Assembly (NCBI RefSeq): GCF_006345805.1
Contig: NC_043006.1
Span: 2,418,001 to 2,482,000 of the forward strand
DNA from: Octopus sinensis
Taxonomy: Eukaryota
Reading direction: 5' to 3'
DNA: 64,000 nucleotides
Shown: positions 4,661-61,730 of the stretch, piece by piece
How the letters are laid out: each line of letters opens with the position of its first letter
Position numbering within the stretch: the first letter of the stretch is position 1
Made by a program: the position numbers and the translations under genes
Notes under the pieces: generated by a model
The model's database searches: none
What the model was told of the DNA's origin: nothing
The model's input: only the letters and a program-made list of their open reading frames with translations

Positions 4661-5228
4661 ACATACATACATACATCAGGTCCAACCCATACCAGCATGG
4701 AAAACAAATGTTAAATGATGATGATGATGATGTTAGATTAAAGGAAATTAAAAAACCAGAAATCCAAGGTGGTTACCTCACTCAGCACTCCTGCAGATAC
4801 TGGCTAACAGTGCACAGAAATAAACAGTGCTCTTTAAAAGAAACCATTTCATCTGAGAATCCCCAGGTAGATTACCATGTAACGGAGTATAATAATGAAC
4901 TTTTAAGAAATGCAGGTGTTGGTATTGCATTTAGTTCTTCATTCAATCGTTTCAACAATACAGAGAAAAGTCACGGAAATAAACAAAGATTACAAATGTT
5001 ACAACATATTACTTGTCATCCATTGCTCATTTCAAAGCATAAAATATTTACTTAATAATGAGTATAAAACAATTATTCATATACCAATGAACCACCAACA
5101 TTTTTGCCTGTAAGAAGCAGGCCTTTTGTACATGCATACTACAAACATACACACATACATATATACATACATACATACATGAGTGTGTGAGTATGTATAT
5201 ATATATGCTTATATACATATATACATAC

Positions 5229-5281
<53 letters not shown>

Positions 5282-5395
5282 ATATATAGATCTGACTGGC
5301 CTGGTGCAGCCTTCGGGCTCCCCAGGCCCCAGTTGAACCGTCCAACCCATGCTAGCATGGAAAGCGGACGTTAACGATGATGATGATGATGATGA

Positions 5396-5437
<42 letters not shown>

Positions 5438-5478
5438 ATGTATATACATATACATGGGCAGTTACTGTCTATACCTCG

Positions 5479-5785
5479 TTCAGAGATTTATATTATACAC
5501 TTTTTCAAGATCAGTGACGAAAGGTCACTGGAAAAAGAATATATGTATTTACATTGGGACCCTTCCATCGAAAACCGGTGATTGTCGGACGCTGAGGACA
5601 GGTCAATGCCTAGAAACTGCAGTCCATGCGTATCACTTAGGTTGACGAGGGAAGGATGACCTCCCTTTGCAAATACCGATAGGGCACAGAAGGTGTGCCT
5701 ATAGCCAGCTGGAGGAGATATTCTCCTGGGGCTACAAACTACAGTAACATCCACCGTTAGTGGTTAGCCATATTCAGAGATTTAT
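5479..5785 (+). mobile_element. Retrozyme-like ~294 bp unit with terminal redundancy and an internal hammerhead
   Basis: Direct repeat TTCAGAGATTTAT at 5479 and 5773; several hairpins; hammerhead core at 5592-5624. Confidence 0.6.
5587..5630 (+). ncRNA. Type I hammerhead ribozyme motif
   Basis: CTGAGGA(5592)-c-AGGT caat GCCT-a-GAAA(5613)-CTGCAG-TC; stem III palindrome ACTGCAGT, GUC triplet; stem I partly decayed. Confidence 0.7.
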
Positions 5786-5791
5786 TATTAT

Positions 5792-5839
<48 letters not shown>

Positions 5840-5884
5840 CATATACATATATACATATATACATATATACATGTATATACAGTA

Positions 5885-6040
5885 TAAAGTTAATCCAAAC
5901 ATGAAAGCACAAAAAAACACAACGTGAGGACATGGAACAAATATAGTATTATTGGACGCTCAGGAAAGAAGGAAAGAAGGAGGATTTAACGTTTCGAGCA
6001 GAGCTCTTCGTCGGAAACATAGGAGAAGGAAAGATCCAGA
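5885..6040 (-). mobile_element. Penelope-pLTR-like fragment with a minimal hammerhead-like motif
   Basis: Minus strand: ttt-CCGACGA-a-GAGC tct GCTC-GAAA-CG-TT-aaa (6017->5984); flanked by TA microsatellite. Confidence 0.55.
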
Positions 6041-6055
6041 CACACATATATATAT

Positions 6056-6425
6056 CATCATCATCATCATCATCATTTAACGTTCGTCTTCCATCCTAGT
6101 ATGGGTTGGATGATTTGACTGAGGACTGGCTAACCAGATGGCTGCACAAAGCTCCAATCTTGATTTGGCAGAGTTTCTACAGCTGGATGCTCTTCCTAAT
6201 GCCAACCACTCTGAAAGTGTAGTGGGTGCTTTTACGTGCCACCGACACGAGGGCCAGTCAGGCGGTACTGGCAACGGTCACGGAAAATCGTGATTTTTTT
6301 ACGTGTCACCTGCACACCGGCACAAGTCCAGTAAGGCGACGCTGGTAACAATCACGCTCAAATGGTGCTTTTTACGTGCCACTGGTACAAACGACAGTTA
6401 GCTGCTCTGGCAACAATCACACTCG
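6056..6425 (-). mobile_element. RTE LINE 3' UTR/tail copy ending in (GAT)n
   Basis: Same tail as the RTE element at 19803-20412. Confidence 0.85.
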
Positions 6426-7040: not shown

Positions 7041-7255
7041 TAACTGAAAAGTTGTTGATTCAATATTTTTCTTTTCCTTGCCTATAATATAGAGTGTTAT
7101 TCTCAGAGATTTTAAGGAGGTAATATGGCATTTGGCGTCTATTTCTACAGTGTGTGGTGAGGCATAAAGCCAATCCTTTGTTATAATTATGTCTATAATT
7201 ATAAAATAAATATACATGTATATTTATATATATATGCATATATATATATATTATA

Positions 7256-7890
7256 TCATCATCATCATCATCATCGTTTAACATCCGTTTTCCGCGCTAG
7301 CACAGGTTGGACGGTTTGACCGGGGTCTGGGAAGACAGGGGCTGCACCAGGCTCCAGTCTGATCTGGCAGTGTTTCTACAGCTGGATGCCCTTCCTAACG
7401 CCAATCACTCTGAGAGTGTCATGGGTGCTTTTTACGTGCCACTGGCACAGGTCCCAGAAGAGACTGGCATCGGCCACAATCGGTTGGTGCTTTTAACGTG
7501 CCACCGGCACGGAAGCCAGCCAAGGCGGCGCTGGCATCGGCCACGTTCGGATGGTGCTTTTTATGTGCCACCGGCACAGAAGCCAGTTGAGGCGGCGCTG
7601 GCATCGGCCACGTTCGGATGGTGCTTTTTATGTGCCACCAGCACAGAAGCCAGCCAAGGCGGCACTGGCATCGGCCACGTTCGGATGGTGCTTTTTATGT
7701 GCCACCAGCACAGAAGCCAGTCGAGGCAGCACTGACATCGGCCACGTTCGGATGGTGCTTTTTATGTGCCACCAGCACAGGTATCACAACTACTATTTCC
7801 ATTGATATTTATTTTGATGTTCATGTAGTTGACTCAATAGGTCTCCTCAAGCACAGTGGGATGTTCTGGAATCCAAGGTACTTTGAATGG
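7256..7890 (-). mobile_element. RTE LINE 3' UTR with internal 67-bp minisatellite (~5 units)
   Basis: (CAT)n + 'cgtttaacatccgttttcc' tail; 'ggatggtgc' recurs at 7549, 7616, 7683, 7750. Confidence 0.9.
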
Positions 7891-8567: not shown

Positions 8568-11500
8568 TTCTCCCCTTTTAAAGGAAGAAAGCTGAACGCA
8601 ATGAAAACTTTCTTATTTACAATGACAAAATATGAGAACTGCATAAGGGATACAAATACATGCAGCATCCTGTCACAATCAGCTGATTCGAGATTGGGCA
8701 TCCACAGAGACGTTGTCTTTACCTTTAATATGTTGAATATTGAGATTAAATTCTTGCAAAGATAAACTCCATCTCATTAATCTCTGATTTTTCTTCTTCA
8801 TCTTGTGCAGTAAAGTCAGCGGATTGTACTCGGTGAACCCTTCAATGGGATACTTGGTGCTTCCCAAATATACATCGAAATGTTTCTTTCTCAATGGTAG
8901 AATAATTTCGCTGGTGTTTGTCAAATTTCTTTGCGTAATAACAAACACGATGATCAACACCCTCTGCATCTGATTGAAACCGAACACCACCGACACCAAT
9001 GTCACTTGCATCAATGGAAAGTTTAAATGGTTTCCCAAAATCTGGTGCTACCAAAACTGGAGAACTCATGCGAATGGCTTTTACTTTCTCAAACGCAGCC
9101 TGACAATTGTCACTCCAAACAATTTTGACACCTTTTTTCAACAAATTAGTGAGAGGGGCCACAACATCAAAGAAATTTGGGCAAAATTTTCTGTAATAAC
9201 AAGCCATACCCAGGAATCTCATAAGCTCCTTTTTGTTTGACAGAACTGGGAATTTTGCAATAGCTTCTACCTTTGCTTTAATTGGTTGTACCTGGCCTTG
9301 ACCAACAACATACCCTAAAAACACCACATTTGCCCGGGAAAATTCATATTTTGCAAGATTTATAGTCAGTTTTGCCGGTGTAAGTTTCTTGAAGAAGGCA
9401 CACATCCTCTTTAAATGTTCATCCAACTCCATAGAATGGCTGATGACATCATCAATGTAGGTTTTGATGCCCTGAAGCCCTGAAGTGATGTTATTCATGA
9501 GGCGTTGAAAAGTGGCCGGGGCACTTTTTCAGTCCAAATGGCATGACTTTATATTGGTATAGTCCATCTGGCGTAGCGAAAGCAGAAATCTTCTTGGCAC
9601 ATCGCGTTAAAGGAATTTGATAATACCCCTTCAGTAAGTCAAACTTACTCACATATTTGACTTGACCGATTCTATCTATACTGTCATCAATTTTGGTATG
9701 TGGTATGAATCCGTCTTAGGCAAAGAGTTCACACGCTTCTGGTCTGTATAACAGTACCACCAGGCTTTGGTACCAGGATGCACGGCGAGCTCCCCTCACT
9801 CGTCACGTGGTTCAATGATGTCGTTCTCCAACATGTAGCTGACCTCTTTTCAGAGATGTTCCAACTTGAGTGGGTTAACTTTATAAGGATGTTGCTTAAC
9901 AGGTTTTGAATCACCAACATCAATATCATGACTAACTAAGTCAGTACTACCAGGTACATCCAGGAATAAATGTATGTACTCATGAAGCAAATCTGACAAT
10001 TGACATTGTTGTTCTGGAGTGAGGTGAGATATCTTTTCACTTCAGAATTTTTTAAACCTTGGGTTAAGCTTCTCAGCCAAATCCTCAAATTTCAAATGCT
10101 CACATTCCTCTCTCAGCTTGTCTGAATCATGATCAATAGGTGAGGCAATAGCAACAACTTTTGGTGGAACACTTTTAGACCTTTCCTAATAGTTTTTGGT
10201 CATGTTTATGTGACAATGCCGTTTTTGTTTTCGGCAGCCTGGAATTTAAACAATGTAGTCCATATCACTGACTTTCTTATCAATCGAATATGGGCCATGG
10301 TATTTGGCTCTAAAATGGTTGACCAGGAATGGGTAGTAACACCAAAACCTTGTCACCAGGACTGAATTTCAAGCTTTACAGTTTTTGTCATAAATGGCTT
10401 TCATTCTGTCCTGTGATTTCTTCAAATTTTCTCTGGCAACCTCAGTAGCTTTGGAAAGTCTGTTTTGAAAAGTAGACACATAGTCTAGCAAGTTCAATTG
10501 GGGCTGGTCATTAAGCCATAATTCTTTCAAGCGTTTGAGTGGGCCCCTGACAGTGTGGCCAAAAGCTAACTCAAAGGGACTAAATCCTAATGACTCCTGA
10601 ACTGACTCCCTAATGGCAAACAACAACAACTGAATGCTTTCATCTCATTCTTTCTCTGTTTCAAAGCAACAGACTCTGGTCATGTTTTTAAGAGTCTGAG
10701 GAAATCTTTCCAAAGCCCCTTGGGACTCCGGATGGTAAGCACTAGGGACTCCAGATGGTAAGCACTAGACTTAACCTAATTCCCAACTCATACTTTGCCT
10801 GTTGAAACAAACTTGACATGAAATTAGACCCTTGATCAGACTGAACCTCTTTAGGCAAACCAACCATAGTGAAAAACTTGATCAAAGCCTTAACTATCAC
10901 AGGAGCTGTGATCTTCCTCAATGGGATAGCCTCAGGGAACCTCGTTGACGCACACATAACTGTCAACAGATACTGATTTCCAGACGTAGTTTTTGGCAAT
11001 GGGCCAACACAACCAATAATGACTCTGCTGAATGGCTCTTCAAATGTAGGAATGGGCTTTAATGGGGCAGGAGGGATTTTTTGATTGGGCTTTCCTACCT
11101 CCTGACAAGAATGACAAGTCTTACAAAACTTTGACACATCCTGACGCAATCTAGGCAAAAAGAAATGAGCCAAAATCCCATCACAAGTTTTGTTAACTTC
11201 TAAATGACCTGCTAATGGAATGTCATGAGCCAAACTGATCACATGTTCACGATAAACTTGAGGAACAATAATTTGTTGAAACACTTTCCATCCATCCTCT
11301 GCAGAAACGTCTGGTGGTCTCCATTTCCTCATCAAAATACCATTTTGGTTGTAATAACAAACAGGAACCTCAACAGCCTCATTGTTGGAAAGTGCTTGGT
11401 GAGCCAATGTTTGAATTTCAAGATTGTTGCCCTGAGATGAAATGAGCTGCGAACGAGTGAGTACAGGGTCGGGCCCCAAAAACTGAGCTTTACTGCTCAG

Positions 11501-11842
11501 AACAAAAGTACTCTCACTTAAAAAGAAATCCTTTAGAGAATGATCCATAAAAAATCCAGCAAGATCATAACTATCGTTCTCATTAAAATTCTCTTTCGAG
11601 ATGTTTTTGGAAATCTCTTGTGAAATTGAGTTAGCCATAGAACGAGTCACAACACATGAGGGAAAAATACCAGGAACAATTTCCTGAAGGGATTCAGTGC
11701 TCTCAGAAGTGCTTGGCTCAATGCTAACATGTGGATCAGACAAAACCTTGGACCCTGCTAAATCATTTCCAATAAGCAAGTCTACACCTGAAACTGGGAG
11801 AGTTTTCTTAACACCAACTTTCACCAAATCAGACACAAAATC
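8568..11842 (-). mobile_element. Ty3/Gypsy LTR retrotransposon pol, Gmr1-type order (PR end - IN - RT - RNase H), pseudogenised and 5' truncated
   Basis: ORF 10742-11914: GVDLLIGNDL, H-x5-H..C-x2-C zinc domain, VII(G)CVGPLP, SDQGSNF; continues YHPESQGALERF; GPY motif at ~10290; RT YIDD in ORF 8842-9498; RNase H DASDIGVG..NYSTIEKE..RLMRWSLSLQEF. Confidence 0.93.
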
Positions 11843-11864
11843 TGACGGGGGTGGGGGTGGGAGG

Positions 11865-11912
<48 letters not shown>

Positions 11913-12093
11913 ACTCACACACACACATACGATGGGATTCTTTCAGTTCTGTCGCTTAAATCTGCTCACAATGCTTTGGTTGGTCTGAAGCTATAGTAGA
12001 AAAAGCACTTGTCCAAAGTCTCACGCAATGGAACCAAACTCAGAACCATGTTGTTGGAAAACAAGCTTCTTGCCGCACAGTCACACCGGTGCC
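11843..12093 (-). mobile_element. SINE family A (head and CA tract) at the 5' breakpoint of the Gypsy element
   Basis: Reverse match to 34495-34790; supplies the spurious CVCVCV N-terminus of ORF 10742-11914. Confidence 0.8.
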
Positions 12094-15044: not shown

Positions 15045-15310
15045 TATTAATTAATTAATGACATGAGAAAAGGCATTATATAACCAAGTTCATTAGCTTA
15101 TAGCTGTTCTATAAGGAGCACTGCACTAAAAGCTGAGTGTTTGTGCAAAATTTGATTCGAATGGTTCTGAAGAAGCTATAAGATGTTGAGTGTATTGCTC
15201 CTTATAGCAGAAACAACTGTAGGCTAATGAAACTGATTATGTAATTCATGTTCTCCTGTGATTCATTAATATCATACTTCGTGCGCACTTAACACTTTAC
15301 TCTAAAAGTA
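15045..15310 (+). mobile_element. Penelope-like inverted pLTR with hammerhead motif
   Basis: 15045-15120 is an inverted partial copy of 15196-15272; CTGAAGA(15167)-a-GCTATAAG...CTTATAGC-a-GAAA(15210)-CAACTG-TA. Confidence 0.7.
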
Positions 15311-19322: not shown

Positions 19323-19391
19323 TGGATATTCCACTGATGAGGCAAAGCATTTCTTATGCAAAGCTAGAAATCCAGGATCTGGAATTATCCA
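19323..19391 (+). ncRNA. Type I hammerhead ribozyme motif within a ~230 bp pLTR-like repeat (19295-19530)
   Basis: Stem I tggatattcca/tggaattatcca; CTGATGA(19334); stem II GGC..gcat-ttctt-atgc..GCT; GAAA(19367); stem III ATCC-a-GGAT; AUC triplet; near-identical copy at 52365-52593. Confidence 0.8.
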
Positions 19392-19802: not shown

Positions 19803-22800
19803 ATCATCATCATCATCATCATCGTTTAGCGTCCGTTTTCCATGCTAGCATGGGTTGGACGGTTCTACTGGGGTCTGTGAAGCCAGAAGGCTTCATCAGG
19901 CCCAGTCAAATCTGGCAGTGTTTCTACGGCTGGATGCCCTTCCTAACGCCAACCACTCCGTGAGCGTAGTGGGTGCTTTTTACGTGCCACCCGCACTGGT
20001 GCCAGACAGAGCTGGCAAACGGCCATGAATGGATGGTGCTTTTTATGTGCCACCGGCACGAGGGCCAGGCGAGGCTGGCAATGGACATGAAACGGGGCGG
20101 TGCTGGCAACGGTCGCGAAACGGAAAGTTCTCTTACATGCCACCGGCACTGGTAACACATCTGCAATTTCCATTGATCGATTTCCATTGATCGATTTCGA
20201 TTCTGATCCTCACTTGCCTCAACGGGTCTTCACAAGCAGAGTTTTGACATGCCACCGGCACTGGTAGCACATCCGCAATTTCCATTGATCGATTTCGATT
20301 CTGATCCTCACTTGCCTCAACACCTTCACAAGTAGAGTTTTGTGTCCCAAGAAGGGAAGGTATGCATACGTAGGCTGGCTCCATCCCATGTAGAAGGCCA
20401 CGGGTTATGGACTCACTTGTCCTGCCGGGTCTTCTCACGCACAGCACACTTCCAGAGGTCTCGGTCTCTAGTCATTTCCTCAGTGAGACCTAAAGTTCGA
20501 AGGTCGTGCTTCACCACCTCGTCCCAGGTTTTCCTGGGTCTGCCTCTTCCACAGGTTCCCTCAACCGCTAGGGTGTGGCACTTTTTCACACAACTATCTT
20601 CATCCATTCTCGCCACATGACCATACCAGCGCAAACGTCTCTCTTGCACACCACAACTGATGCTTCTTAGGTCCAGCTTTTCTCTCAAGGTACTTACACT
20701 CTGCCGAGTGTGAGTACCGGCATTACACATCCATCGGAGCATACTGGCTTCATTTCTAGCGAGCTTACGCATATCCTCAGCAGTCACGGCCCATGTTTCA
20801 CTGCCATGTAGCATGGCTGTTCGTACACACGCATCATACAGTCTGCCTTTCACTCTGTGCGAGAGGCCTTTTGTCACCAGCAGAGGTAAGAGCTCTCTGA
20901 ACTTTGCCCAAGCTATTCTTACTCTAGCAGTTACACTTTCAGCACACCCGCCCCCGCTGCTGACTTGGTCACCTAGGTAACGGAAACTATCAAATTTCTA
21001 GTTTTTCTCCCTGGAAAGTGACGGAAGTTGGTCTCAGAGCATTTTCAGTGTTTATTGTTCCTGAGCATCTGCCACATACAAAAACCATCTTCCTAGTTAG
21101 CCTTCCTTTGACATTGCTGCATCTCTTATGTGTCCATAGCTAACACTTGGTGCATCTTATAGAGTTTCTACCTACACCTTTTCTACAGATCAGCAGGGCC
21201 ATCTACCTGAAGGTGTTTGTGATTTGTCTACCTTCCTACTGATTACGACTTTGGTTTTAGCTAGATTGACTCTGAGGCCCTTCGATTCTAATCCTTGTTT
21301 CCACACCTGAAACTTCTCCTCCAGTTCTGATAGCGACTCAGCAATTAGAGCAAGGTCATCAGCATAGAGGAGCTCCCAAGGGCATCCTGTCTTGAATTCC
21401 TCCGTTATTGCCTGGAGGACTATGATAAATAGGAGGGGGCTGAGTACTGAGCCTTGGTGGACTCCTACCTCTACCCGGAATTCTTCACTGTACACATTTC
21501 CAACCCTCACCCTACTAGCGGCGTCCCTATACATGGCCCGCACAGCTCTCACTAACCATTCATCTATCCCTAGTTTCCTCATTGCCCACCAGATAAGGGA
21601 TCGGGGGACCCTGTCGAAGGCTTTCTCCATGTCAACAAAAGCCAGGTACAGGGGCTATCTTTGGCTAGGTATTTCTCCTGCAGCTGCCTTACCAGGAATA
21701 TAGCATCAGTAGTACTTTTCCCTGGCACAAACCCAAACTGCATCTCATCTAAACTAACTCTCTCTCTAATTAGTTGGGCTATGACCCTCTCCGTAACCTT
21801 CATCACCTGGTCCAACAGCTTGATACCTCTGTAGTTATTTGTATCTAGGGCATCACCTTTACCTTTGTAGCAGTTGACTATTATACTGCTACACCAGTCA
21901 TTGGGTATGACCCCTTTGTGTATCACCTGATTAACTATACGGGTGACTAGGCTATAGCCGACACTACCAGACATTTTGAGCATCTCTGCAGTGATTCCTG
22001 ATGGGCCTGGGGCTTTCCCTGTCTTCATGCTTCTAATTGCCTTAGCTACCACGGACTATCAACTCGGATAGCTGGTCCCTCTGTTGGGTCAACATTCGGC
22101 AGACTCTCTTTATCCCATTCATTTTCTTCATTCAGCAACCTTTCATAGTGGCATCTCCAAACCTCTCTCTTGCATCCTCATTTAGCGCAAGTGAACCATC
22201 TTCCATGCGAACACACTTCTCTCCTACCACATCACGATTCTCTCTAACACACTGTCTTGCAACACGAAACACCTCCAGTCTTGGTCCTCACGGCGCAGAA
22301 CATTGGCAAATTTTTTCTTATCTGCTTCCCCTCTGGCTAAATAAACCTGTCTCCTAGCTTTCTTTTGGCAGTCTGATACAATCCCCTGCTACCCCCATTT
22401 TTCCAGACCTTCCAAGCCTGTCTCTTCTCTAATAGCCCTGTCTACAATATTGTTCCACCACCACGTTATTCTAGGTCGAGAGGGGACTTGCACCAGCCAC
22501 AGATCTGGTCAGTGGCTCTCAGCAGGTTGTCCCTTAGAAACGTCCAGCTGTCTTCTACCCCCTGTGATGCTCTATCCCCTTCTACTTCGTCAGAGGCTTC
22601 AAGTAATATGTCCCTAAATCTCTGTCCATTTGCAGGATCTTTAAGCTTCCAGATCCTTCTTCTCCATATTTGTCGTCTTCTGGTTGTCCTCCTAGTCCTG
22701 ATCCTAAAGTCACTAACTACCAGTCTATGTTGTGGGGTACATTCTTCACCATGGAAGGTTTTGGCATTTATAAGCAGCCATCTCTCCCTTTGCCTTGTAA

Positions 22801-23204
22801 GGATGTAGTCAATTTGGCTGGTATGTTGGCCCGATTGGTAAGTGACTAGGTGGCTGGTAGGTTTCCTGAAGTTAGTGTTGCAAATCATAAGATTATTTGC
22901 ATCGCAGAACTCCAGCAGCCTGGTTCCCTCCTCGTTGCAGAAGCCATAGCCATAGCCTCCATGTACGCCATGGAAGCCCCCAGCATGTCGTCCAACGTGA
23001 CCATTGAAGTCACCAGCCACAAAGATAAGGTCTCTGTCGTTCGTCAACGAGGTAGTCTGCAGTAGAGTGTCATAGAATCGGTCTTTCTGTCCATCGGGTA
23101 GCCCCGACTGAGGAGCATAGGCTGATATAATGGTTGCTAAACTATGATGAAGCACTAATCTAATCTTAAGTATTCTGTCACATACTCTGATTACCTCAAT
23201 TACT
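19803..23204 (-). mobile_element. RTE-clade LINE, 5' truncated, frameshifted ORF2 (APE - RT - PHD-like insert - C-term) plus 3' UTR
   Basis: APE: AYAPQ, AGDFNGHVG, SQIDYIL, QHRLV; RT: KAPGPSGI, NYRGIKLL, QFGFVPGKST, KAFDRV, GVHQGSVLSPLLF, LYADD; C-term RRLRWYGHVARM, RGRPRKTW; (GAT)n tail. Confidence 0.96.
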
Positions 23205-23209
23205 TTATC

Positions 23210-23268
<59 letters not shown>

Positions 23269-39129: not shown

Positions 39130-40430
39130 GATGCAGGCATGGCTTCCCAACCACATGGTTCTGGGTTCAGTCCCACTGCATTGCATCTTGGGTAAGTGTC
39201 TTCTGCTATAGCCTCAGGCCAACCAAAGCCTTGTGAGTAGATTTGGTAGACAGAAACTGAATGGAGTCTGTCATACCGGGTGTGATGGGTAAATTGTCGA
39301 CATTTTATATTTTTATTTTTATGCATGTACATTGTTTGTTTTTCATTTTGTTGACTACACAGTATCGTAGGGTCAGTTGGGCACCGTCTGTGAGAAAAAC
39401 AACAGCATGATGCAATTCACTCAGCCAGAAATTTGGAAACAACATGCTGTACTGCTTGGCATTCACACCGGAAGCATCAATGCGAAAATTTCAGAGTGTT
39501 TGGGTGTCAATCTGGGGACAGTGCAGAGGATTCAGAAAGAGTTGGATGAGTCTAATGGTCATTTTGAAGGTACGGCATCTCAGAAAACTTACTTTGATCA
39601 TTCTGATAAGAAAAGAATTCCACGTAACCTCAGACTCAACACAGAGGCCTATGTCAAGTGCCTGGAGGAGGTAGTGCCACCCTGGGTCAAGAGGGTGGCT
39701 GCTGAAATACCCTATGTCTGGCAACAAGACTATGCACCATGCCACTCAGGCAGGAGAACCCAGTCCATGGCTGTCAGACAATTTCTGTGACCACATCACT
39801 CCTAACATCTCACCACCTAACTCCCCAGACTGCAACCCCCTTGATTATTATGTGAGGGGTGCAGTACAGCAAGAGACCAACAAAACTCCTTGCCATATCA
39901 AAGATGAACTGAAGGCAAGGATTATGGCAGCATTCACCAACTTAAACAAGGAGACCACCCAGAATTGTTGTAGGAGATTCTGAAGTTGTCTGGAGGCCGT
40001 GGTTGAAGCCAATGGCGATTTTATTGAATAAATTTACTCTTTAGTATTTGAAGATATTTTTATGCAATTTTGGTAAATATTTCTGTTAAAATGAAATGTC
40101 AGTGTTATTTTCATTTTTGCATAATTTAGACAATTTATTCACCACACCCTGTATATAAATATATATATGTATATATATATGTGTTTGTGTGTAGAAGGGG
40201 GTATTTCTTCGTGTGTGTCCCCACCACCACCACCACCATCACTTGACAACTGATGTTAGTGTGTTTATGTCCTCGTAACTTAGCTGATCGGCAAAAGAGG
40301 CTAATAGAATAAGTATTAGGCTTACAAAGAATATGTCCTGGTGTTGATTTCTTTGACTAAAACCCTTCAAGGCAGTGCTCCAGCATGGCTGCAGCCAAAT
40401 GATTAAAACATGTAAAAGAATGAAAGAATA
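39130..40430 (+). mobile_element. SINE family A split by the maT transposon
   Basis: Head 39130-39275 and tail 40152-40430 rejoin into one SINE A. Confidence 0.85.
39276..40151 (+). mobile_element. Tc1/mariner DD37D (maT-like) transposon, internally deleted
   Basis: TA|CCGGGTGTGATGGGTAAATTGTC ... GACAATTTATTCACCACACCCTG|TA; HTH (ISECLGVNLGTVQRI); WQQDYAPCH...SPDCNPLDY with 37 residues between D2 and D3 after correcting one frameshift. Confidence 0.92.
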
Positions 40431-58896: not shown

Positions 58897-61730
58897 TGAT
58901 TTTTATTACCCACAAGGGGCCAACGAAGAGGGGACAATACAATCTGATTTTGGGGTCAGATGAGCGAATGGTTATACAAAAAATTGACATTAAAAATTTA
59001 ACAAAAATAATAAAATATAATAAAATCGAATGGTAGGACAGATCGGAAGACATTACGAATGGAGTGGGGGGCGGGTTTAATTCGGACCCCACGATCCCCG
59101 CCTCGCCACTGATACCTGAGTTACATCCTGTGTCGCATTCATGAGGTTCCATCCACGCGCAACATCCGTGCTGCATTCTTCCATCGATTTTCAAACATTT
59201 TCACAGTCAGGCATTTTCTCTCTAACCCTATTTTCCTTTTAAGGTGAAAGGTGAAGTAATTCACCAATTCAGGGCCAGAGATGAAAGTGCCTGACTTTAA
59301 CCCTTTCAGCCTCGTTCTCCAAATCACCTCTCTCGCGATTGCTACTACGATGAGAAAACAATTCTTACCTCCTTTCGAAAGGAAATCAGGCGGGTCAATT
59401 TTTACTATAAACTCAGTCGATAGCTGTACTCTTCCTGCACTTGACAACAGTTGTTCAGCATAAACCCACACATCTGACACCTCCGAACATTGAACAATAG
59501 CATGCGGGACGGTTTCCTTATCCCGCTCGCATCTTGGACAGGTCGAAGGGTCACAGCCACCATACCTTGTGGGCTTGTCCCGACAGGTAAGGCTCCTCGG
59601 TAACACTGCCATGCCAGAGACTTCTGAAAGTTGTCCAGGGTCTTCGGTCCGAATGTACGTCGGAGCAGACTGGCCAGCTGATTATCGTCGAGACCTACGG
59701 TCTCCCCTAAAGTATCGTCATATTCCGCCTCTACAAGCCCACTATAAAAGAATGCGGTGGAACCTCCACCGCAGGCATTGCCCGAGGGACGGAATAGCAG
59801 GAGAGCCTTGCGACACTCCGTAAACCATGTACCCAAACTTCGATCTTCGATAGAACCATGATTCCCGTCCACTGAAACTAGTGAACTTGGGAAACATCCA
59901 TTTCGCCAGCGGAGACCACACCCGTTCACCATCCAGGTAGAGCCACAGATGCCTCAACCTCAGCGCATGTCTGCGCATCAACAGCCAAGGCATCCCTAGC
60001 CCACCCTTTAACGGTTGTTGGCAGCAAGTAGAGCGTTTCAGAAGAGGTTTCCAGCCCCTCCACAAAAAGTGGAAGAGCTGTCTTTCCAGCTTGATCAACC
60101 ACGAATAAGAGCAAGGAACGACGGATAGGCAGTAGGTGATGACCGATGCGATGAACACAAGACCAGGCCTTGACTATGTGGGTCACCCTGCTCGATAACT
60201 CGGCCCAGTTCTTCTCTATTTGGACGTCTGGTCCAAACCAAGCTCCTAGCAACTTAATCGGACCCTCCGTCCAACGTCCCACGACGCTGTCAGGAGGCAT
60301 CGACTTGCTTCTCCAGGTGCCGAGCTGCAAGCCGATTGACTTTTCACGATTAACTTTTGCTCCTGTCACCGTCTCGTAAACCTTAATGGCCTTGCCTACC
60401 CTCTGTAGGTGATCCATTTCGGTTACGATGATGGTGATGTCATCCGCCTAGGCTGACACCGACTTTCCACAACCTGGCTGTCTCGGGATGCCGCTCAATT
60501 TTCGCAGTAATGGCTCAAGAGCCATCACGTACAAATGCAGGGAGAGCGGGCACTTTTGGCGAACCGAGCGTTTGATGTTGAACGGCTTCGATAAGAAGTC
60601 GTTCATCCGAACTACCGAGTCGATGTTGTCATAAATCTGAAAGATCCACCTGAGGAAGCCAAGACCCAGGCCGAACTGTGCCAGAACGGACACCAGGTAG
60701 CGATGGTCAACCCTATCAAATGCCTTAGATTGGTCTAAATGGACCAATGCCCCACCATTTCCAGAATCACTATTAAACCCTTCTAAAGTATACCGCATAA
60801 GATGGAAAATTATCCTGGATGGTTCTGCTGGGAACGGCCATGTCTGTGCCTCCCCGATCAGACCATCCACGACACGCGCCAATCTTTTCGATAACACTTT
60901 GGCCAAAATCTTCTACTCTGCGTTTAGCAGAATGACGGGCCGAAAATTTTCAACGGAATACCCTTTTCCGAGTCCTTTCTGACAAGCGTCACCAGATCTG
61001 TGACGCAGAGTTGAAGATTGGTCTGTGCGCACAGATCTGGGAATAAACCCGTTCTGCTGCCAGTTCGCGTGGACATTCGCCAGCAGGTGCCCGAACAAGT
61101 CTGGCATACTCTTATACAACTCATATGACAGACCATCCAGTCCCGGCGCCCTACCCGCGCTGCAGTCTGCCATAGCCTCAATTACCTCCTCAGGCGTGAT
61201 CGGCCCTTCACAGCACTCCGCGTCCCGCCCCGTTAGGCGCAGCAGCCCAGTGAAGAAATCCGTTAGGTCCCTCCTACTATTCAGTCCGCCTCCCCCACCG
61301 AAAAGCTGGGCGAAGTGCTCCTGAAAAGCCTCACACATTTCCTCGGGCTCGCCTATCAACTTACCTTGTTGGGTCGTCAAAAATCGGAATGTGGCATCAT
61401 TATCACGTTGGGCTTCCACCCCTCGGGCCTATCCTGCGGCATTGATCCCCTCACAACCCACTGCACGAAGTCTAGCCCTGACAATGCAACCCATGTGTTT
61501 GGCTTCAAGGTACTGGTTTGACGCCAGTTTTCATTCTTTCCTCTAAATCTTAAACTAAAGCTGATTCCCTCCTAGCCTCTCTAGCCACTAAATCTATGCT
61601 ATATCTAATAGACTCAAATTTTATGGCTCGCTTGAGGGCATACCACCATTTATTATTAATAATGGAACCAGTCAATGCCCTCTGAATCAACATCTTAATC
61701 CGGTCTCTATACTCCTTACTGTGTGTAGGA
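58897..61730 (-). mobile_element. Tx1/L1-clade LINE, 5' truncated, frameshifted ORF2
   Basis: RAPGLDGLSYELY, NFRPVILLNAE, LDQSKAFDRVDH, SVRQKCPLS, SA*ADD, GAKVNREKS, KGGLGMP, CCHC knuckle CPRC..ETVPHAIVQC; 3' end with AATAAA. Confidence 0.93.

Follow-up and report, generated by a model that had tools for sequence, protein, structure and literature searches.

Octopus sinensis carries an abundant, non-coding 352-nt hammerhead repeat family with the anatomy of non-LTR retrozymes and insertions laid out like those of Penelope-like elements

Metazoan non-LTR retrozymes have been described in coral, mussel (350–390 bp) and axolotl (330/350 bp), and their cleavage and circular forms have been shown (Cervera and de la Pena 2020, PMC7229834). 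Related elements of vertebrates, whose monomers are dispersed and whose multimers are clustered, were recently proposed to be non-autonomous derivatives of Penelope-like elements (PLEs) and to be mobilised by them (Li, Clavereau, Pollet; bioRxiv 10.64898/2026.07.22.740005). The evidence presented in that study is co-occurrence and homology with the pseudo-LTRs (pLTRs) of PLEs; one of nine predicted frog retrozymes cleaved in vitro, and the species set, as the preprint's text describes it, is without a mollusc. The idea of a PLE as the helper of animal retrozymes has thus so far been drawn from co-occurrence and pLTR homology, with a circular template assumed, and the ends of insertions bear on both points. 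PLEs themselves leave a recognisable layout in the genome, comprising partial tandems, an inverted and 5'-truncated neighbour, a tail of 30–40 bp at one end and a bias towards (TA)n (PMC8557442 and its preprint). A full-text search, mostly of literature outside subscription journals, listed no paper on cephalopod retrozymes and none on this insertion footprint in retrozymes.

Here, a window of 64,000 nucleotides from the Octopus sinensis genome led to an abundant family of non-coding 352-nt repeats with a hammerhead motif. We give a probability of roughly 0.8 to the reading that this family is a non-LTR retrozyme by anatomy, that it was likely pasted into TA microsatellites in trans by the RT/endonuclease of a PLE, and that its cycle, as we infer it, includes cleaved and ligated monomers. 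The assignment to non-LTR retrozymes, which an earlier note on this DNA had already suggested, follows from the anatomy (PMC7229834; PMC7761336), since the family is multi-copy, tandem-forming and non-coding and has a conserved type I hammerhead. The likeness to the described metazoan systems extends to the few-hundred-nt unit with GC below 50%, the mixture of tandem and dispersed copies, and the single type I hammerhead per unit with a short stem III and a palindromic tetraloop (PMC7229834). Even the mismatch at the base of stem II has a counterpart in the axolotl HHR_Amex2, where it is U-U instead of the C-A seen here (PMC7229834). Two differences stand out: cleavage and circles, predicted for the octopus family, have been shown for the metazoan retrozymes described, and most octopus copies are dispersed insertions of one or two arms, whose 3' ends are fixed at two sites, a property absent from the published description as available in PMC7229834.

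Table 1. Features of the window copy (positions within the 64,000-nt window) and loci of the two sister families
Feature	Position or loci	Strand	Remark or basis
Retrozyme copy, single-arm, dispersed	5458..5789	+	~90% identity to family consensus over 5461-5778
13-mer, first copy	5479..5491	+	internal unit sequence, followed by 7-nt deletion; alignments
Type I hammerhead (putative)	5586..5630	+	sequence, constrained fold, covariation across three families
Stem I	5586-5591 with 5625-5630	+	two mismatches in window copy
Core	5592-5598	+	
Stem II	5600-5602 with 5609-5611	+	above a C-A mismatch
GAAA	5613-5616	+	
Stem III, 2 bp, with palindromic loop	5617-5622	+	
Predicted cut	after 5624	+	
52-nt deletion junction	5772..5778	+	between two 6-nt near-identical words; fixed end A lost, 294-bp spacing produced
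Second-round remnant and fixed 3' end B (end of ~45-nt tail)	5773..5789	+	
(TA)n-rich target microsatellite	5790..5880	no strand	
Sister family 2	L183-L207, L233-L302		
Sister family 3	L208-L232		

The unit size follows from a tandem array and a rebuilt consensus, both of which give 352 nt for family 1, the family of the window copy; this lies within the 150–450 bp of non-LTR retrozymes. A similarity search with the window sequence in its own genome returned at least 68 matches (40 of 3228 candidates were scored), among them the array with period 352; a search for tandem multimers had been proposed as a check in the earlier note. One tandem array comprises five units, and the units of the array C30 differ from each other at only 1–6 positions. 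Far from being single-copy, the finding named in the earlier note as refuting its reading, the family yields 1671 exact genome matches to a 20-mer from the 3' part of the unit, compared with 0 for the reversed control. Two sister families were found beside PLE loci, and both have the same two 3' ends as family 1. Family 2 also has a unit of 352 nt, with best copies 95–99% identical to the consensus and 1164 exact matches to a 21-mer, and is younger; the unit of family 3 is 356 nt, and its copies are 80–96% identical to their consensus. The copies are permuted rounds of one unit and lack an LTR-body-LTR arrangement. At one family-1 locus (L022:2061-2607), a 50-nt minisatellite of ~11 copies, derived from the hammerhead-containing part of the unit, lies at the 5' end of an arm. 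Words resembling Pol III boxes, picked out by eye in family 1, are not kept in the alignment with families 2 and 3 and were set aside.

The window copy is truncated at its 5' end at unit position ~179 (counted from the predicted cut site), covers one round and stops at the fixed 3' end designated B. It starts at ~5458, where the earlier note had placed the start at 5479, and ends at 5789. Compared with the consensus, 7 nt are missing near 5491 and 52 nt at 5772/5773, and the alignment accounts for the spacing of the two 13-mers (294 = 352 - 52 - 7 + 1). Several features reported earlier are real: the 13-mer recurs at 5773-5785, 294 apart from its first copy; the core of a type I hammerhead lies at 5592-5624; the copy is GC-richer (0.44 in 5458-5789, 0.39 for the whole window); and no open reading frame of at least 120 aa overlaps it. 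The hairpins at 5512-5530, 5679-5703, 5713-5727 and 5730-5770 are present in the MFE structure, and the bases of the proposed hairpin at 5648-5666 instead pair at long range. The view that the copy derives from a cDNA slightly longer than one round also holds, the 13-bp repeat being its terminal redundancy. Within stem I, the copy has two mismatches that the earlier note did not mention (G-G at 5588/5628 and C-A at 5590/5626), and the constrained hammerhead fold amounts to -0.7 kcal/mol as compared with -8.6 for the consensus; on this model, the mismatches probably disable its ribozyme. With these and the two losses, the copy is a decayed, probably inactive and dead fragment of an abundant, protein-free repeat family.

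Other repeats share the window. On the - strand, 5883-6040 is a repeat with a minimal-hammerhead-like motif (starting at 6014) with a U4-to-C core, a 4-bp stem II and a palindromic loop; the repeat is turned with its 3' end towards the retrozyme, from which the TA tract separates it, matches to it occur in 24 of 301 fetched loci, some of them overlapping, and it is likely the end of another PLE-type family. Hammerhead-like motifs with a long stem II lie on the + strand at 15167, 19334 and 52401, of which the latter two are near copies and the one at 19334 has a 6-bp stem I. Copies of a common SINE-like repeat that ends in (GAT)n lie at 4680-4733, 5288-5397, 6051-6420 and 7252-7500. Judged by eye, broken ORFs at 8842-11914 (-) resemble a Gypsy-type LTR element, those at 20413-23233 (-) and 59139-61428 (-) two LINEs, and those at 39371-39790 (+) a mariner-type transposase. 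A tblastn search found no PLE ORF in the window.

Positions within the hammerhead (C3, U4, G8 and so on) are named by the standard numbering. In the window itself, a loose hammerhead pattern was found 8 times with 5.94 expected, which is chance level, and a comparison of the window and of three family loci with Rfam gave no hammerhead match. The case for the hammerhead therefore rests on the family, whose 385 exact matches to the core pattern, with 0 for the reversed control, lift the motif beyond chance. Folding does not fix the strand, since both the + strand (z -3.74, 0/100 shuffles as good) and the - strand (z -5.0) fold better than shuffles. Covariation was assessed on 66 motifs sampled from the 152 found in the three families, in which 94.3% of 858 helix cells are paired as compared with 7–55% in slid controls. 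Cells changed on both sides number 103 (41.9 +/- 8.8 in shuffles, 0/500 as high), a count drawn from about three lineages and inflated by relatedness; pairs with a double change number 6, which is not above the control (5.2; 202/500 shuffles). By these alignments, the helices appear to be kept across the three families by compensatory changes.

Loop 3 occurs in three different palindromic forms across the families, and in about half of the family-2 motifs it is self-complementary only through G-U; a palindromic loop 3 fits the dimer cleavage described for hammerheads with a short stem III (PMC4209133; PMC7229834). The C3-G8 pair of the core is replaced by U3-A8 in 2 of 71 family-1 motifs; L090 and L181 represent a subfamily with this swap, and a U4-to-C subfamily (L082, L093, L109, L135, L136, L138, L143, L153, L157, L174) has amplified, so that an intact core may not always be needed. 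Fully intact motifs number 33 of 83 in a family-1 scan that includes a few stray matches and is indicative only. The circular fold proposed as a check in the earlier note came out in favour, the predicted circles having circular MFE z values of -4.2, -9.5 and -6.6 (0/40 shuffles as good in each case), all of them predictions.

A clue to mobilisation comes from the ends of the insertions. Family 1 was sampled through 100 listed 20-mer matches, all on contig C1, which gave 79 loci after 6 overlapping duplicates were dropped; arms were accepted at an identity of at least 79% (family 1) or at least 85% (family 2), and the shortest arms escape a search with a word close to the 3' end. In this C1 sample, 120 of 130 family-1 arms stop at one of two fixed sites ~45 nt apart (site A, at unit positions 164-179, accounts for 65 and site B, at 211-233, for 55; the other 10 end elsewhere). 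The 63 family-2 loci on C1 behave alike, with 92 of 98 arms at A (45) or B (47) and 6 at other sites. Head-to-head pairs make up 46 of the 79 family-1 loci (36 A+B, 2 A+A, 2 B+B and 6 with an irregular end) and 32 of the 63 family-2 loci, 27 of them A+B. The 3' ends are thus fixed and only the 5' ends vary, which does not agree with the earlier expectation of circularly permuted copies with free ends. Fixed ends had been named in the earlier note as a sign against its reading; they are present, and they indicate Penelope-type integration instead of a TSD, none of which is discernible in the TA-rich flanks. Near the 3' ends, (TA)4 lies within 30 nt in 54 of 120 cases for family 1, against a 4% background (158 of 3950 random flank positions).

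This combination of fixed 3' ends, inverted arms, a tail at one end and TA targets is the published PLE layout, and the footprint is a line of evidence for PLE mobilisation separate from co-occurrence and pLTR homology; the latter was found at none of the 50 GIY-YIG loci examined here, in contrast to the vertebrate study (10.64898/2026.07.22.740005). The octopus copies share with Neptune/Naiad-type PLEs (Craig et al. 2021, PMC8557442; Cervera and de la Pena 2014, PMC4209133) the 5' truncation, the partial tandems, the adjacent inverted copy, the single-ended tail, the (TA)n targets and a hammerhead within the repeat. Unlike those elements, as described in these sources, they have no ORF, a unit of 352 nt instead of kilobases, and a hammerhead that is near-canonical rather than minimal. 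Among the observations that speak against the main reading, the tail is ~45 nt here and 30–40 in the published account (PMC8557442), and 10 of the 46 family-1 head-to-head pairs are not A+B.

Candidate enzymes exist in the same genome. Intact ORFs of 775–883 aa combine RT and GIY-YIG domains with the CxxC linker of the Neptune type (L111-L117); at two of these loci, a 479-aa ORF lies upstream and overlaps in a different frame, several loci carry a U3-A8 minimal hammerhead in their 3' end, and one RT + GIY-YIG family has its own two 3' ends and TA targets. An autonomous partner sharing the unit sequence was found at none of 50 GIY-YIG loci (30 + 20, from 149 matches among 5029 candidates, a few of them not PLEs); the search was directed at GIY-YIG elements other than the Naiad type. 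In a blastn comparison of the unit with these loci, the strong matches were only separate retrozyme insertions, accompanied by one short diverged match. A likeness of the tail to that of one Neptune-type family, noticed by eye, was rejected (83/200 shuffles as good, not significant), and the best of 84 tail comparisons was equalled by 1/200 shuffles, as chance predicts. Two putative PLE-retrozyme chimeras (L115, L266) were likewise discarded, their PLE and retrozyme parts being separated by (TA)n.

Other readings of the family have to be weighed against this one. That the 294-nt monomer is the unit of a circular RNA, or the 13-mer a TSD, as the earlier note had proposed, fits the spacing of the 13-mers and is very improbable: the unit is 352 nt, the 294 junction occurs once in the genome, in the window copy, and the 13-mer, found again in aligned copies, belongs to the interior of the unit, which makes the repeat a terminal redundancy. 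It is also quite improbable that the family consists of pseudo-LTRs of an autonomous Penelope-like element, left solo or as truncated ends, and is not an independent non-autonomous element. The copies do show PLE traits in their fixed 3' ends, their tail, their inverted arms and their TA targets, and hammerheads do occur in pLTRs (PMC4209133); against this, the sequence upstream of long arms re-enters the same 352-nt unit, up to five times, and does not lead into an ORF, (TA)n separates PLE fragments from copies in the two closest cases, and the PLE families examined have their own, different minimal hammerheads.

A separate question is which RNA was copied. All 47 family-1 arms that reach the cut site cross it, none having its 5' end there, and 37 of 41 do so in family 2, in which 4 of 41 arms start within -2..+3 of the site, with ~1–3 expected from local density by our estimate, which is no clear pile-up. 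Arms longer than one unit number 19 of 120 in family 1 and 20 of 92 in family 2. Because cDNA starts far from the cut site, a cleaved linear monomer would yield at most 172 or 218 nt. Successive rounds and inverted arms of one insertion differ by ~4% as compared with 10% between loci. At diagnostic non-CpG sites (121 family-1 and 83 family-2 loci, similarity-selected ones included), concordance is 544/567 for rounds, 752/790 for inverted arms and 57% between loci in family 1, and 239/251, 373/388 and 59% in family 2, so that the two arms and every round trace back to a single template sequence (95–96% vs 57%). A circle is the simplest account of this read-through and concordance, and we lean towards it. 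The alternative, which we consider unlikely, keeps the family and its PLE mobilisation but has a few homogeneous source arrays transcribed into linear tandem RNA that stays uncleaved and serves as the template, with circles absent or irrelevant. A homogeneous array such as C30 accounts for cut-site read-through equally well and also predicts identical rounds, and the weak base of stem II, the 2-bp stem III and the amplified U4-to-C subfamily sit well with an uncleaved RNA. Aged source arrays should, however, pass on recurrent differences between first and second rounds, and across loci none was seen except at the edge of end A; the conservation of the ribozyme helices across three families and the accumulation of known retrozymes of this anatomy as circles (as reported in PMC7229834) also argue against it. 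Of 24 listed entries, 20 contain part of the family-1 unit, and none is recorded as RNA. One assembled contig (run X8, organism B, record 25, 387 letters, depth 5; run type not recorded as RNA) covers the unit and re-enters its own start by ~30 letters; such self-overlap is expected from a circle or from a tandem of identical units and was not used as evidence. It came from a comparison of the contigs of seven guessed-RNA runs with one family-1 and one family-2 monomer, in which ends, strand and level are not readable.

Taken at its most specific, the circular reading holds that a PLE-type enzyme primes cDNA from each end of a TA target with a single small circular ribozyme RNA as the template; the enzyme would start at two fixed positions, ~45 nt from each other and remote from the cut site, and would run round the circle. 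We place this at slightly under even odds. In the cycle of the main reading, tandem copies would be transcribed, and the hammerhead, probably aided by dimer pairing through the palindromic loop 3, would cut out 352-nt monomers that a host ligase would close. The PLE enzyme would then nick a (TA)n target, and cDNA would be primed at the two fixed sites, which lie ~172 and ~218 nt 3' of the cut site and serve one DNA end each. Copying of the same RNA would continue across the ligated junction and at times exceed one round, and two 5'-truncated cDNAs would be joined head to head, or a single arm left, as may have happened at the window copy, which would afterwards have lost 52 nt and 7 nt and gained its two stem I mismatches.

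The insertion ends predict priming at ~172 and ~218 and supply (TA)n as a target; with intact candidate enzymes present in this genome, a small RNA could be used to test how the tails and inverted arms of PLEs arise. If the circle-primed reading is true, the thousands of insertions in the octopus genome would document reverse transcription that is both target-primed and circle-templated, and the 352-nt unit would be a minimal substrate for reconstituting PLE transposition.
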